From assembly GCA_003056265.1 (NCBI GenBank), contig NBVN01000002.1:330001-362000 (forward strand): a stretch of 32,000 bases of DNA. Direction: 5' to 3'. The notes under the pieces were generated by a model that did no database searches, was not told where the DNA came from, and saw only the letters and a list, made by a program, of their open reading frames with translations. Position 1 is the stretch's first letter. Each line of letters starts with the position of its first letter. A program made the position numbers and the translations under genes. This DNA is from Zestosphaera tikiterensis. Its GTDB lineage: Archaea > Thermoproteota > Thermoprotei_A > Sulfolobales > NBVN01. Below are positions 6,753 through 31,678 of the stretch, in pieces.

Positions 6753-6877
6753 CGTCTTTAGTCTCTTGAAGCAGCCCAGCAGTCAGGCTTAAAGGATACT
6801 ATGTCTGACCTCCTCCCCGTTCTGAAGGACTTAGGGTTATGGATTGCTTTCACCAATCATCGGCCTCAGAGGGCCTC

Positions 6878-6963
6878 AAAAATTCGTGTGGGAAATATTG
6901 GGCTTCTAGAGGGTGTTTTCGGTATTGCTTGAAGTTTACCTCCAACACATTAAACATCATCAC
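6878..6963 (-). ncRNA. Candidate ~85-nt transcript inside element copy A
   Basis: On the minus strand a promoter-like gaagatttatataa (6978-6991) lies about 20-26 nt upstream of GGUGAUGAUGUUUAAUG. A U5 run (6878-6882) sits at the same aligned position as the U4 run in copy B. Confidence 0.3.
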
Positions 6964-6977
6964 CAAAAGCTAAACAA

Positions 6978-6991
6978 TTATATAAATCTTC
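6978..6991 (-). promoter_or_regulatory. TATA-like box (gaagatttatataa on the minus strand) inside element copy A
   Basis: It closely resembles the AOR promoter candidate aaagatttatatg (14456-14468, minus strand). Confidence 0.35.
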
Positions 6992-7113
6992 CTATCCACA
7001 CCACAGATGACAGGCCTTCGGTTGTAAGGAGGTATCAAAGCGTTCTATGCTTTAACAGCATAAATAGCGAAAAACGCTTAGCTGGTAAAAATAAATATTA
7101 GAATCCTAGCGTC

Positions 7114-7207
7114 TGGTGCCGCGGCCGGGATTTGAACCCGGGTCACGGGCTTTCCATGCGTGAAGCTCGAGAGGCCCGCATACTTGACCGGGCTATACTA
7201 CCGCGGC
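7114..7207 (-). tRNA. tRNA-Glu: tRNA-Glu (anticodon CUC) with 16-nt intron at 37/38 and encoded CCA
   Basis: The reverse complement reads GCCGCGG-UA-GUAU..GUAU-G-CGGGC-CUCUCG[AGCUUCACGCAUGGAA]A-GCCCG-UGAC-CCGGG-UUCAAAU-CCCGG-CCGCGGC-A-CCA. All four stems pair. The intron (7152-7167) sits in a relaxed BHB with bulges CGA and AAA. A cttataag box lies about 29 nt upstream. Confidence 0.85.
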
Positions 7208-11264: not shown

Positions 11265-12404
11265 CTATACGTACCTCTCGAAGAGGTAGTACTGCAGTGG
11301 GCATCTGCTGTAGCCGTGGAGGTAAGGGCAGTGAGAGCACGTAGGCATGTTCACCCAGCAGTCCGACTCATTGCTGTAGGTGTACGAGCAGTAGGGTGCA
11401 AGTTCGCAGTTCAGACACGAAGGCATGAGTGCAAGAGCAGCTCTGATTCTGAACTTTGTGTAGAATTCGCTTCTCCATATCTCTAGAAGCTTCTCCTCCG
11501 AGATGTTCCCGAAGACGACGGGCTCAACCCTCCTCTCAACACCTCTGAACGAGAACCTCCAGCTATGGGCGTAGTGTATGCACGGAGCTACACCTCCGTC
11601 GAACCTAACATAGGTCGTCCTAGCCTCTGCGAACGGGCAAGACCTCTCGTAGCCTAATATGGTGGGTGGAAGAACTATTTTAACCGGTTGTCTAAATTGA
11701 ATATTAATACTTCCATAGATAGCTTTTTCGATCATCTTCCTGAACTTATTCTGCCTCTCGGGACTGTACAGACACGAGTAAGCCTCCTCGTGCTCCCGGG
11801 TGAAGGGGATGATGTGAGATATGAAGACCCTCGTTATACGGAACTTCGCGGCGAAGAGGGGAAGATTCAGAACGTCGTGGCAGTTATAGGATGCAAGAGT
11901 GAACCAGAACGCAATTATAGGGCTCTTCCCCAACTTCTCGGAGACTTCAACAAGCCTTAGAACGCCGTTTAGTACCTCGTTGAACGCTCCTCCAACCCTT
12001 AACCTCCCGTAGAGCTCAGGATCAGCTGAGTCAACGCTTACAACAACACCGTCCACACCCATCTTAACCAAGTCGTCAACGTAGTCGCTGAGCAGAGCTC
12101 CGTTGGTGTTCAGGAGCACTCTGAAGCCCCGCTTCTTCGCTTCACCGAGGATTTCGAGTATATGTGGATGGACTAGGGGCTCCCCCCACCCGGTGAAAGT
12201 GATATTCCTGATGCCGGCCTCTTCGAGCTGATCCAGGAGTCTTCGGTACAGCTCCAAATCCATGTGACTAAACTCGGAGGGCTTCATATAGTTCCTGAAG
12301 CAGTGAACACACCTATAGTTGCAGTGAGTCGTAACTTCAACAACGACTTCAGACGGCTTCGATGGCTGCTCCTCAATTCTGAGACCTCTAAACCTTACCT
12401 CCAA
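11265..12404 (-). CDS. Radical SAM / SPASM-domain protein, putative tungsten-cofactor oxidoreductase maturase (Cmo-like)
   Basis: It has CNYRCVHC (CxxxCxxC), GWGEPL, and a Cys-rich C-terminus (CPFAE...APCIH...CLNCELAPYC...CSHCPY). It lies directly downstream of the AOR gene, as with P. furiosus cmo next to aor. Confidence 0.75.
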   Translation of the reverse strand: MEVRFRGLRIEEQPSKPSEVVVEVTTHCNYRCVHCFRNYMKPSEFSHMDLELYRRLLDQLEEAGIRNITFTGWGEPLVHPHILEILGEAKKRGFRVLLNTNGALLSDYVDDLVKMGVDGVVVSVDSADPELYGRLRVGGAFNEVLNGVLRLVEVSEKLGKSPIIAFWFTLASYNCHDVLNLPLFAAKFRITRVFISHIIPFTREHEEAYSCLYSPERQNKFRKMIEKAIYGSINIQFRQPVKIVLPPTILGYERSCPFAEARTTYVRFDGGVAPCIHYAHSWRFSFRGVERRVEPVVFGNISEEKLLEIWRSEFYTKFRIRAALALMPSCLNCELAPYCSYTYSNESDCWVNMPTCSHCPYLHGYSRCPLQYYLFERYV

Positions 12405-12545: not shown

Positions 12546-14435
12546 TTATTTTAGTAGTTCGAGTGCTACATCTTCGAGATCTAGCTCCTTAAGCTTTCTC
12601 ACGGTTGGCAGACCTGTCTCCTTATCCCATCCCATTGCCTCATAGTACTCGTCGAGGATAACGTTCAGGTTTACAATCTGCCCTTTGCCTCTTCCATCCG
12701 GTGCTGGCTCCTTTAGGAATCTTTCAGGTAATGTATCATCCTTTCTTGTGAATCCTTCTCTTGCATTGAAGGCCCTTTCAAGATTTATTACACGTTCAGC
12801 ACTTTTTAGGAGGGTCTCCTTATCCGTGTTTATCCCAGTAACTGCGGTAAATAGTCCTGCTAGTGTTGAGGGTTTTACTGCTAATAGTATGCCTGTGAAG
12901 TAGCACATTCCAAGCATGTTGAACAGCATGGAGTATTCTTTGAATGGTTTCACCCATGCCTTATCCGTGTCTTTTAGTGGATCCTTCTTCTCAGTTATAC
13001 CTAGCTCTGGCTCAATGTATCCGAAGGCGTCGACAGCCGATGCATAGGGCCTTAAGTGATCTGCACCTCGCTCCGAAGTCGCGTGGGTTACTACTTCACC
13101 CTTGCTGGCCCTTACACCGTCGGCAGCCATCTCCATGCCTTTGACGTGCATCACATAGTTTATAGCACCTCTCCCTATCTTCAATGCAGCTCTATACGAT
13201 CCCTCAGCTAAGAGGTTGCCGAACCCCTCCCTGTAGGCAATCTTCTTAATCATTTCGATAACCGCATCAGCGTTGCCGAATCTGAGTTCTATCCCGTCGG
13301 TTACAGAACTGTCTATAATACCCCTCTCATACCACTCCATAGCTGTCGCTATTACTTGTCCAGTAGATATAACGTCAAGCCCTAGTCTATTACTCAGATA
13401 GTTGGCCATGGCTATAGCGTACAGATCGGATATACCGAGCTTTGTTCCAAAAGCTGCTACTGCTTCATATTCCGGTCCATGCCCCTTCTCCCCAGCATAC
13501 TTTCCTTCGGGGATCTCAGTATATCTACCGCAGACAACTGGACAGTTATAGCAGGGCCACGGCTTGACCCTGAGTTTTCTATGGTAGGCCTCGTGGTCGA
13601 TCTCAGCAATCTTGTCAAACGTTGTCCTCTGCCAGTTGTATGACGGCAGTATACCGACATCATTTATTGCTTTAGTAAATGCCGGTGTACCATATTTTGC
13701 TAACAATTGGGATGTAAAGGGCTCCGCCTTGATCTCCTCAATCGCCTTGAGAGCGTATTTTCTGAGCATCTCTGGATCCTTTACTGGTACCTCCTTGGTG
13801 CCATAAGCTACAACAGCTTTAAGGTTCTTAGAACCCATTACAGCTCCTCCACCACCTCTACCAGCAGCCCTGCCTCCATCAACCATAATGCTCGCAAATA
13901 GTACAAGGTTCTCTCCAGCAGGACCTATACAGGCAACAGAGGCCTTCTCGTGGGTCTCCTTTAGAAGCTCCTTGGTCGTCTCTTCAACATCAAGACCCCA
14001 CACGTGGTCTGCACTACGAATCTCGACGACTCCGTCGTGAACCCATAGATAAACAGGTTTCTTGGCCTTACCTGTTACAACAAGTACGTCAAATCCAGCC
14101 TTCTTCAGATTAGGAGCGAAGAATCCTCCTACATTGCTTGCACCAATGGTGCCTGTTAGAGGACTCTTAAATACAATGGAAGTTCTACCCGAAGCAGGAA
14201 CCATAGTGGCAGTTAAAGGACCTGTAGTGAATATGATCGGGTTCAGAGGTGAGAAGGCTGAAACCTTAGGTGGAAGCAGATCCCACAAAATCTTTGCTCC
14301 AAAGCCCTCTCCACCAATAAACTTGTAGATCCATTCCTTAGGCAAGTCCTTTACAACAACCTTCTCCCTAGTTAGATCGACGAATGCTATCTTGCCCATA
14401 TAACCGAAGACTTCAGACACCAGTATATCCCCCAC
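12546..14435 (-). CDS. aor: Tungsten-containing aldehyde:ferredoxin oxidoreductase family protein
   Basis: 629 aa with a GTG start. The N-terminus GKIAFVDLT...V.....P......FIGGEGFGAKILWD fits AOR, and later blocks include CYNCPVVCGR (4Fe-4S ligands) and GLDVISTG. Confidence 0.92.
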   Translation of the reverse strand: MGDILVSEVFGYMGKIAFVDLTREKVVVKDLPKEWIYKFIGGEGFGAKILWDLLPPKVSAFSPLNPIIFTTGPLTATMVPASGRTSIVFKSPLTGTIGASNVGGFFAPNLKKAGFDVLVVTGKAKKPVYLWVHDGVVEIRSADHVWGLDVEETTKELLKETHEKASVACIGPAGENLVLFASIMVDGGRAAGRGGGGAVMGSKNLKAVVAYGTKEVPVKDPEMLRKYALKAIEEIKAEPFTSQLLAKYGTPAFTKAINDVGILPSYNWQRTTFDKIAEIDHEAYHRKLRVKPWPCYNCPVVCGRYTEIPEGKYAGEKGHGPEYEAVAAFGTKLGISDLYAIAMANYLSNRLGLDVISTGQVIATAMEWYERGIIDSSVTDGIELRFGNADAVIEMIKKIAYREGFGNLLAEGSYRAALKIGRGAINYVMHVKGMEMAADGVRASKGEVVTHATSERGADHLRPYASAVDAFGYIEPELGITEKKDPLKDTDKAWVKPFKEYSMLFNMLGMCYFTGILLAVKPSTLAGLFTAVTGINTDKETLLKSAERVINLERAFNAREGFTRKDDTLPERFLKEPAPDGRGKGQIVNLNVILDEYYEAMGWDKETGLPTVRKLKELDLEDVALELLK

Positions 14436-30355: not shown

Positions 30356-30388
30356 GAAACTTCCTATCATTAACATCCATCTTTTTTT
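30354..30388 (+). terminator. rtcB terminator: short hairpin aggaa-ac-ttcct followed by T7
   Basis: The hairpin at 30354-30365 overlaps the TAG stop, and the T7 run is at 30382-30388. Confidence 0.55.
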
Positions 30389-30423
30389 ACAACTGAAAGC
30401 CTCGCCCTTAAGGGCGGGGATGG

Positions 30424-30435
30424 AAAGCTTATAAG
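30424..30435 (+). promoter_or_regulatory. BRE/TATA-like box aaagcttataag inside element copy B
   Basis: It has the same word as the rps19e, nep1 and secY promoter candidates. GGUGAUGAUG begins about 26 nt downstream of the TATA centre. Confidence 0.35.
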
Positions 30436-30458
30436 TTGTTTCTTCTAACGTTTTTATG

Positions 30459-30552
30459 GTGATGATGTTTAATGTGTGTGGGAGGTAAACCTCAAGCAAA
30501 TCAATTAAAGCATATATATATAACACACATAACGCCTCCCACATGAAGTTTT
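30459..30552 (+). ncRNA. Candidate ~95-nt transcript inside element copy B
   Basis: Its 5' GUGAUGAUGUUUAAUGUGU is identical to copy A. A 9-bp stem UGUGGGAGG (30475-30483) / CCUCCCACA (30535-30543) encloses an AU-rich variable core, and the region ends in a U4 run (30549-30552). Confidence 0.3.
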
Positions 30553-30602
30553 GAGGCCTTCTAAAGGTCGATGATAAATGAAGATATCCCATAACCCTAA
30601 GT

Positions 30603-30704
30603 CCCCCGAAGGGGGATAGGGGTAATGGGCCGGAAGCCCGGCCCGGAGGTGAATAAAGAAAGATGTACCTCCAAACCAATGAACCGCCCGAAGGGAGACC
30701 CTAC
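30603..30704 (-). repeat. 102-nt GC-rich multi-hairpin block present in copy B only
   Basis: It is inserted exactly between ctgaagg and acttaggg, which are adjacent in copy A (6828/6829). It is about 60% G+C by hand count and folds on paper into four consecutive hairpins. Confidence 0.6.
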
Positions 30705-30724
30705 CCTTCAGGACGGGGAGGAGG

Positions 30725-31678
30725 TCAGTCAATAACTTTAACATAGCTTTTAATATCCTTAAGCGAGATTTCAGCTGAGGTGTCTACAAACATATACGCC
30801 GCTCGCTTGTTGAAGTATGGCTCGCCAACACGGCTAAATAACGTTACAACTCTACCGTTATGGTTTAGCTTAAATCCTTCATAAGCTGGTTCATGACCTC
30901 TAACGACAAATTTAAAGTTATACTTTCCTAAAAACCAATTAGTTACGGAGGAACCGAAAAGATAACCAGCCCCTCTCGGCGATGGTTTTCTATCCACATT
31001 AGTTATGTCTATAGGGTCATTCCACAGGATCTCGGTAAGCAACCTGTTAAATTGATCTTCAGATACCCCCATAAAAAACTCTACTAAAGTAACTTCCCTC
31101 CTATAATTCTCTGTTGGAAGTCCTCCATGCAACGCTACGAAAGTTTTATTTACGTACTGAACTAAAGGCATGCTACTAAACAACTCTTGAAATTTAGCGT
31201 AGATGTTAGTTCCCTTCTCATAGCCGAACAAGAGCCTTAATTCGTGGGGGAAGTCGTGAGGTGATGGGATTAAAAACGGTGGTGGTTCGTGATTACCCCT
31301 AAGTATGGTAACACATTCGGGGAACTCTGCCTTAAGCTCTAAAACAGTTAGTATAGTCTCAAGTTGGTTAGGCCCTCTATCTATATAATCACCCAAGAAA
31401 GTTAGCTCAAGTTCTTTACAACCCTTCATAACTGATACATCAACTTTATTGAGTATCTTCTTTAACGTGTCTAAATCACCGTGAAGATCTCCTATAATTA
31501 AGAATTTACTTCCAGGCTCTTTACCCACCATATAACTTCTTCGTTGCTTATACTCGCTAATTAAAACTTCTTGATATCTTTCAAGAGACTTAACTAAGGC
31601 ATTATAATCGCTTAAAGCCTCTGCTAACCTACTTACCATGAAATCCGCTAACGAGCTCATTACATACCCTATATCCAC
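30725..31678 (-). CDS. PPP-family Ser/Thr protein phosphatase (calcineurin-like metallophosphoesterase)
   Basis: IIGDLHGD, LGDYIDRGP, LRGNHE and ALHGG...GH are the PPP signature motifs. The N-terminal extension is about 55 aa. Confidence 0.85.
   Translation of the reverse strand: MDIGYVMSSLADFMVSRLAEALSDYNALVKSLERYQEVLISEYKQRRSYMVGKEPGSKFLIIGDLHGDLDTLKKILNKVDVSVMKGCKELELTFLGDYIDRGPNQLETILTVLELKAEFPECVTILRGNHEPPPFLIPSPHDFPHELRLLFGYEKGTNIYAKFQELFSSMPLVQYVNKTFVALHGGLPTENYRREVTLVEFFMGVSEDQFNRLLTEILWNDPIDITNVDRKPSPRGAGYLFGSSVTNWFLGKYNFKFVVRGHEPAYEGFKLNHNGRVVTLFSRVGEPYFNKRAAYMFVDTSAEISLKDIKSYVKVID

Follow-up and report, generated by a model that had tools for sequence, protein, structure and literature searches.

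A predicted omega-RNA-type scaffold at the right end of a gene-less IS200/IS605-family element in Zestosphaera tikiterensis

The locus and the two copies of the element

The window analysed here, a 32,000-nt stretch of Zestosphaera tikiterensis contig NBVN01000002.1 in which all positions are counted from the first letter, contains two copies of one element in inverted orientation, copy A on the minus strand (6805–7023) and copy B on the plus strand (30391–30728), which share repeat arms at 6827–6866/30565–30604 and 6802–6828/30705–30731. Copy B is flanked upstream by rtcB (Pfam E = 2e-176) and downstream, on the other strand, by a metallophosphoesterase gene (30725–31678, minus strand) whose stop codon, TGA at 30725–30727, falls within the element's right end. 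A tRNA-Glu(CUC) gene of 94 nt, presumably with an intron (7114–7207, minus strand), lies some 90 nt upstream of the TTAC that precedes copy A. Elsewhere in the window a 60-nt inverted repeat, 77% complementary (10794–10853/12500–12559), brackets a radical SAM/SPASM gene (11265–12404, minus strand) that adjoins an aldehyde ferredoxin oxidoreductase gene (12546–14435, minus strand).

Alignment of the two copies within the window bore out the observation of the initial annotation that exactly 102 nt of copy B (30603–30704, plus strand) are without counterpart in copy A. The G+C content of this block is 59.8%, in agreement with an earlier hand count of about 60%, vs. 38.9% for the rest of the element and 42.4% for the window; its surroundings, which had been taken for an AT-rich spacer, belong to the 338-nt element itself. 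At the junction, copy B reads ...CCATAACCCTAAGT, then the 102 nt, then CCTTCAGGACGGGGAGGAGGTCAG on the plus strand, and copy A reads ...CCATAACCCTAAGTCCTTCAGAACGGGGAGGAGGTCAG on the minus strand. By way of a common CC the junction can be placed in three equivalent ways (deleting 30603–30704, 30604–30705 or 30605–30706). The tagggt hexamer reported at both junctions is indeed there, as ACCCTA on the plus strand at 30594–30599 and 30698–30703.

Copy B is a complete non-autonomous IS200/IS605-type element of 338 nt (PATE-like), whose ends are common to at least 30 other TTAC...GGTCAG elements, the autonomous element at locus L028 among them. It has no ORF for TnpA or TnpB, and tblastn found no tnpA or tnpB within the 32-kb window. 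Both copies start directly after TTAC (TTAC followed by AAC[CT]GAA[AG]GCCT) and finish in GGAGGAGGTCAG, with the common right end ...CUUCAGGRCGGGGAGGAGGUCAG. The TTAC target motif at the left end of copy B (30387–30390, plus strand) is host DNA, and its TTA corresponds, on the other strand, to the TAA with which the phosphatase gene originally ended. Subterminal hairpins are found at both ends of copy B (left, 30400–30419; right, 30699–30718), and the left-end hairpin sequence (AACTGAAAGCCTCGCCCTTAAGGGCGGGG, 30391–30419, plus strand) is kept in L028, L040, L075, L085, L002, and L052. A BRE/TATA-like archaeal promoter (GAAAGCTTATAAG) is predicted at 30423–30435 (plus strand), with the TATA box proper at 30428–30435; GCTTATAAA stands at the equal place in relatives, in L028 upstream of tnpA. 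The usual TATA-to-start spacing is about 26 nt, which would place the transcript start near G30458.

The 5′ module (30458–30575, plus strand) comprises a C-box-like GGUGAUGA, a long lineage-specific stem-loop (30474–30544), and a UUGAGGCC...GGUCGAUGAU hairpin that opens the match to the Rfam family HgcC (from 30553). The stem-loop, of about 70 nt, follows the C-box-like motif and precedes the UUGAGGCC hairpin; it reads GUGUGUGGGAGG...CCUCCCACAU on the plus strand in copy B and GUGUUGGAGG...UUUCCCACAC in copy A (6950–6886, minus strand), is absent from L040, L075, L085, and L052, and is replaced by a different insert in L002. Across the gene-less elements, the 5′ half retains the order GGUGAUGA, about 12 nt, UUGAG, a short hairpin or loop, and CGAUGAU, which resembles the inner part of a C/D box sRNA. 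This arrangement, seen in the window at 30458–30575 (plus strand) and 6964–6850 (minus strand), at 2730–2790 of L040, and in L075, L085, and L052, is invariant in seven elements from several MAGs, has no terminal D box, and could form a K-turn or be a site for L7Ae. Scaffold helices 3–4 again show this "hairpin + GAUG" shape. An archaeal C/D box sRNA has a C box (RUGAUGA) near the 5′ end and a D box (CUGA) near the 3′ end; we rejected this identity for copy B, which has GUGAUGA at 30459–30465 and CGAUGA at 30569–30574 but no terminal D box on the plus strand, its sole Rfam C/D match having an E-value of 5.6. A canonical-looking C/D box sRNA (UGAUGA ... UUGA ... CGAUGA ... CUGA) does occur at L008 (976–1100, minus strand), followed immediately by TTAC and a 39-nt element, so that the D box abuts the target motif.

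The omega-RNA-type scaffold of copy B (HgcC/sotRNA-like; 30586–30728, plus strand) was recognized by covariance-model and Rfam matches and by covariation. It is composed of helix 1 (30594–30623), helix 2 (30627–30644), helix 3 (30645–30672), a linker with the penultimate hairpin (30673–30698), and a terminal UUCA-loop hairpin (30699–30718), all on the plus strand, and it stops exactly at the right-end boundary, ...GGAGGAGGUCAG, at 30728. Of helix 1, the 102-nt block contains the apical 5′ strand, the loop, and the complete 3′ arm; it further contains helices 2 and 3, the linker and the penultimate hairpin, and six of the eight nucleotides of the 5′ arm of the terminal hairpin. What had been described as inverted copies of the block's own flanks are actually paired arms, those of conserved helix 1 and those of the 3′ hairpins. 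In helix 3, copy B has GGAGGUG/UACCUCC vs. GGGAUUG/UAAUCCC in the consensus, paired changes that keep every pair. Copy B has no helix 4, and its terminal hairpin contains two non-canonical pairs, so the copy may be past its active life. Should a transcript pass the right end, the segment at 30729–30748 (plus strand; UCAAUAACUUUAACAUAGCU), which lies antisense to the phosphatase gene's 3′ end, would be its guide, as predicted from TnpB omega-RNA architecture (PMC10055086, PMC10640517).

Copy A, 219 nt long, is the same element in a decayed state, with its TTAC at 7027–7024, a degenerate left-end hairpin, and a deleted scaffold core. The deletion junction (AAGT/CC; 6827–6829, minus strand) shows a 2-nt CC microhomology and adjoins the ACCCTA direct repeat; the loss runs from helix 1, whose 3′ arm is gone, through helices 2 and 3, the linker and the penultimate hairpin into the terminal hairpin, most of whose 5′ arm is missing. 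Having lost the scaffold core and with its left-end hairpin decayed, copy A is a dead copy. Its score against R1, the covariance model introduced below, is 10 bits (E = 0.1) and its match to HgcC is weak (17 bits, E = 0.11; 44 central model positions missing), and it folds no better than shuffled sequences. The distance between the ATA[AT]CCC..AG motif and the right end is 36 nt in copy A vs. 135–217 nt in 19 scaffolds (the 18 relatives listed and copy B). States specific to this lineage are common to both copies, for example CCCTAAGT vs. CCCCGAGT in relatives, and such shared derived states point to a common ancestor that carried the block. On these sequences, the simplest history is a B-like ancestor followed by a 102-nt internal deletion in copy A, a reading that the initial annotation had listed among three and that both the scaffold lengths and the shared states support. 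Another short-repeat scaffold deletion like that of copy A is seen in L021, where, compared with L111, the 17 nt of the penultimate hairpin are missing between CCGCCC repeats.

The insertion site and relatives of the element

Removal of 30391–30728 in silico joins ...TTAC to TCAATAAC... and gives a phosphatase ending in ...KVIE-TAA instead of ...KVID-TGA. The orthologous protein P0002 at locus L119, 82% identical, ends in ...KIVS-TAA at the same length. At that locus the spacer is without the whole element: the stop codons of rtcB and the phosphatase gene are 16 nt apart, and the site, the empty site of a PATE-like element, reads TTAG, not TTAC. The relative with this empty site is represented by ERZ4120739. 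Copy B was thus inserted exactly at the phosphatase stop; the ancestral TAA now lies 338 nt away as the TTA of TTAC, and a TGA in the right end keeps the length of the ORF, with a change of E to D. The insertion, in other words, replaced the gene's stop codon without altering the length of the protein. Two assemblies of closer relatives (one identical, one 96% identical) break inside the element (L001, 3954–4007; L120, 1478–1489), which is what one expects of a repeat and suggests several copies in those genomes. The exact phosphatase protein was matched only on a 6.4-kb Logan contig that breaks inside the element, and SRR17771679 carries the identical locus. In searches for copies of the same lineage, GGTGATGATGTTTAATGTG...GGAGGTAAAC had no match in the fetched loci or the metagenome contigs, and YCCATAACCCTAAGTCCYYC gave no more than two chance matches.

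Scanning one genome per species for the right-end motif, the last 23 nt of the element (CTTCAGNNCGGGGAGGAGGTCAG), yielded at least 117 archaeal loci, each holding up to 8 kb; collected through this motif, the sample is biased towards right-end context. The loci listed come from Desulfurococcales, Ignisphaera, Caldisphaera, Acidilobus, Thermococci, Archaeoglobi, Nitrososphaeria, and others, and fall into three classes. Minimal elements of 39 nt (TTAC followed by AACTGAAAGCCTCGCCCTTCAGGGCGGGGAGGAGGTCAG), in which one hairpin serves as both left and right end, are found in at least 15 loci from many archaeal MAGs (L012, L018, L034, L044, L053, L059, L068, L073, L080, L093, L096, L102, L104, L115, and L008). 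Gene-less elements of 168–428 nt follow the plan of copy B: left-end hairpin, GCTTATAAA, GGTGATGA, CGATGATAA, CATAACCCCGAGT..GGGATAGGGGTAATGGGCCGG..ATGTAATCCCAAACC, terminal hairpin, and right end. The third class bears tnpB: at about 19 of the loci listed a TnpB homolog ends at the motif, and three of these also have tnpA. The TTAC/GGTCAG-bounded elements (the window copies and at least 30 others) form a size series from 39 to 1787 nt, and the DNA after GGTCAG differs at every locus; TTAC formed part of the search expression for the 30-element set and is also visible in the raw locus listing. Two loci with the archaeal right-end motif, L045 and L057, are on contigs assigned to a bacterial bin (Desulfovibrio sp. 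MAG Md513_bin130); contamination of the bin, horizontal transfer, or a branch of the family in bacteria could account for this.

The element at L028, from an Ignisphaera MAG, is a complete autonomous member: it has TTAC, the same left-end hairpin as copy B (TTAC followed by AACTGAAAGCCTCGCC..GGCGGGGATG), a TATA box, tnpA (Pfam Y1_Tnp, E = 2e-40), tnpB (OrfB_IS605 and a Cas12f-like TNB domain), and the same scaffold and right end. Its tnpB ORF (640–1947) reads through the scaffold, which overlaps the region coding for the TnpB C-terminus, and its right end finishes at 1934. Copy B therefore has both ends in common with an element that encodes a Y1 transposase, and, as in PATEs, it lies 3′ of a fixed tetranucleotide and has neither terminal inverted repeats nor a target-site duplication.

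Ten relatives align with 30586–30728 column by column at a mean identity of 79%, and elements in Ignisphaera, Desulfurococcaceae, Archaeoglobales, and Nitrososphaerota MAGs have a homologous block at this same position. The core motif of the block (ATAGGGGTAATGGG) occurs 18 times in the fetched DNA, with the right end 99–152 nt downstream in 17 of the 18 cases, the exception adjoining masked sequence. Among these 18 occurrences in the fetched loci none was seen outside the scaffold context.

The scaffold: homology, strand, and structure

A covariance model, R1, was built from 10 relatives in other archaea, with the window left out. It matched 30586–30728 (plus strand) over its full length (model positions 1–145 of 145) with 103.4 bits (E = 5e-28), and its hairpin part matched the left-end region of copy B (17.4 bits, E = 8e-4). 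The sequences used for building scored 123–169 bits and L052, which was not used, 145.6 bits; across the loci, full scaffolds scored 61–169 bits and right ends with the hairpin only at most 46 bits. The block is thus far more than a chance structure, given its column-by-column homology with scaffolds in at least 10 other loci and the E-value of 5e-28 for an independent covariance model.

An Rfam run with permissive thresholds gave two matches on the plus strand, both spanning the full model and including the block and both of its flanks. HgcC (RF00062) matched 30553–30741 with 31.5 bits (E about 1e-5; model positions 1–130 of 130), below its gathering score of 50 bits, and sot0042 (RF02656) matched 30589–30718 with 29.9 bits (E = 3e-6; model positions 1–174 of 174), below its gathering score of 88 bits. 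A UUCA-loop terminal hairpin followed by GAGGAGGUCAG is present, CCCUUCAGGACGGGGAGGAGGUCAG at 30704–30728 aligns to the HgcC consensus, and the consensus tail CGggGAGGAGGUCAG is identical to the window sequence. At gathering thresholds the window yielded two tRNAs only, and eight relatives yielded no Rfam family. Since its scores lie below the curated thresholds, copy B is not filed under HgcC or sot0042; judging from sequence, its RNA is best described as a probable member of a related, uncurated omega-RNA subfamily of Thermoproteota-type archaea.

Single-sequence folding gave –65.5 kcal/mol (z –4.3) for the plus strand and –66.8 kcal/mol (z –3.0) for the minus strand, so stable hairpins are predicted on both; by itself it cannot tell the strands apart. 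The four minus-strand hairpins drawn in the initial annotation are predicted as described, but mirror-image hairpins form equally well on the plus strand. The RNAalifold consensus, at –53.5 kcal/mol on the plus strand vs. –41.7 kcal/mol on the minus strand, is better by 12 kcal/mol on the former, where helices 1–4 are 93–99% paired. Compensatory changes affect 8 pairs and 18 cells; among 500 shuffles, none reached this number of cells and 3 reached this number of pairs, and the percentage paired and the covariation score were also reached by none of the 500. Slid controls were at most 58% paired. At one position the pair is G-U in 10 of 11 sequences, where the minus strand would have A-C, and over the consensus structure there are 42 G-U cells vs. 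13 A-C cells. This excess of G-U over A-C favours the plus strand, which is the tnpB sense strand in relatives. The suggestion of a structured RNA therefore stands, while the strand assigned to it, that of the phosphatase mRNA, was wrong according to Rfam, the consensus fold, and the G-U pairs. The C(UUCG)G loops pointed out on the minus strand exist in copy B and are particular to it; the homologous loops vary in relatives and are not conserved.

The scaffold resembles the TnpB omega-RNA (reRNA) of ISDra2 and of SisTnpB1 from Sulfolobus islandicus (PMC10640517) in being a multi-hairpin structure on the tnpB sense strand, conserved with covariation, which in autonomous relatives overlaps the 3′ end of tnpB, stops at the right-end boundary, and is followed by variable DNA; a conserved motif, here TTAC, adjoins the left end, whereas it is TTTAA/TTTAT in the Sulfolobus elements (PMC10640517). 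It differs in that the window is without tnpB and the scaffold belongs to a gene-less element, behind its own predicted promoter. With HgcC it shares the full-model match, a 5′ hairpin followed by CGAUGA, the UUCA-loop hairpin, the identical 3′ tail GGGGAGGAGGUCAG, and the character of a high-G+C RNA-like island in an AT-rich thermophile, but it has about 60 extra nt (helices 2–3) as an insertion relative to the model.

The sotRNAs arise from the 3′ end of IS1341-type tnpB and have the UUCA tetraloop in common with HgcC, and elements with fused left and right ends (PATEs) express such RNAs (Gomes-Filho 2015, PMC4615843). VNG_sot0042 (RF02656) and the PATE-derived VNG_R0052 of Halobacterium salinarum (PMC4615843) are similar to the RNA of copy B in the order of hairpins over the full model, in the UUCA tetraloop, in the origin from the 3′/right end of IS1341-type tnpB, and in being an intergenic RNA, predicted in our case, of a fused left-end/right-end element; sot0042 comes from another phylum and has a different primary sequence. 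Like the PATEs of Haloquadratum (PMC3119063) and Geobacillus stearothermophilus (PMC10055086), copy B is gene-less, has ends in common with autonomous elements, and is inserted beside a fixed tetranucleotide without target duplication, and such elements often carry an omega-RNA. In contrast to these, its family has a conserved internal promoter (predicted) and a C-box-like 5′ module, and includes 39-nt minimal forms with little beyond one hairpin.

Interpretation of the block and its possible function

We consider it very likely that the 102-nt block is not an insertion but forms the middle of the omega-RNA (reRNA)-type scaffold with which a gene-less IS200/IS605-family element terminates on the right. 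The initial annotation had also offered a nested mini-element, which would make the block an independent mobile sequence that arrived with inverted copies of its flanks. The precise presence and absence of the block between the copies, the short repeat at its junction (CC, with ACCCTA nearby), and its conspicuous G+C content would all fit such an event; it is nevertheless extremely improbable, as homologous blocks stand at the same position in the elements of other genera, including the autonomous tnpA- and tnpB-coding one, all 18 occurrences of the core motif among the fetched loci are in the canonical context, the block junction has neither TTAC nor left-end or right-end features of its own, a scan of viral contigs with the block core found nothing, and two metagenome scans with other motifs of the element gave no matches or chance matches only. 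Another candidate, a minus-strand role in which the block would give the phosphatase mRNA a structured 3′ UTR or a terminator, strikes us as improbable, though somewhat less so. That mRNA must enter the element, its stop codon being in the right end; the hairpins start a few nucleotides past the stop codon, the loop of the second contains a CUUUCUUUAUU stretch, and for this single sequence the predicted stability of the minus strand matches that of the plus strand. Yet the structure was not built for the phosphatase gene, whose 82% identical ortholog has a 16-nt spacer and no element, and the weaker minus-strand consensus fold, the recurrent G-U pair, the 42 G-U vs. 13 A-C cells, and the lack of conservation of the UUCG loops all speak for the plus strand. 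Two further candidates were set aside. Both copies have a small same-frame ORF on the opposite strand, in which the block would make up 34 codons, but the indels between copies A and B break the frame; and a bulge-helix-bulge intron in a non-coding RNA, considered on account of the intron in the tRNA-Glu gene beside copy A, is at odds with a block that is kept in relatives, read through by tnpB in L028, and folded into covarying helices.

A different question is whether the scaffold still serves a nuclease. With the identity of the block unchanged, copy B could be an inert fossil whose hairpins persist because the insertion is recent or harmless, to which we would give a little less than an even chance. 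The 32-kb window has no tnpA or tnpB, helix 4 is missing, the terminal right-end hairpin has two mismatches, copy A demonstrates decay in this lineage, and copy B reaches 103 bits where the sequences used to build R1 reach 123–169. Against this, helices 1–3 are intact, the paired changes in helix 3 retain every pair, and the left-end hairpin and the TATA box are intact as well. Present-day guide activity of copy B may come close to an even chance.

PATEs often encode omega-RNAs that are acted on in trans by TnpB (Meers 2023, PMC10055086). Copy B was inserted 3′ of a TTAC overlapping the phosphatase stop codon. If, as an omega-RNA-bearing element, it behaves as is understood for IS200/IS605 elements and TnpB (PMC10055086; PMC10640517), the conserved TATA box (30428–30435) would start a plus-strand transcript near 30458 that crosses the scaffold and continues past 30728, ending in a guide derived from the flank. 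TnpB supplied in trans could then cut the TTAC-flanked empty site left after excision, and recombination would restore the element, such that guided cleavage of the empty site would favour its retention. Across several archaeal orders, gene-less elements have kept a predicted promoter of their own, the complete omega-RNA scaffold, and a 5′ module resembling a C box or K-turn (GUGAUGA ... UUGAG ... CGAUGAU). It is conceivable, though we think it quite unlikely, that the gene-less elements are free-standing guide-RNA genes that perhaps recruit an RNA-binding protein, for example L7Ae, besides TnpB in trans, and that the guide of copy B has been co-opted for host regulation.

What appeared to be a self-referential nested insertion is, on the reading we prefer, the conserved core of a transposon guide-RNA scaffold, and the short copy is the product of a deletion. 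The locus documents a PATE-like element with its own predicted promoter and omega-RNA scaffold in Desulfurococcales-type archaea, and it links HgcC-like high-G+C islands to the right ends of IS200/IS605 elements. Current understanding of these elements is unchanged by it, and its main use would be in the correct annotation of such islands.
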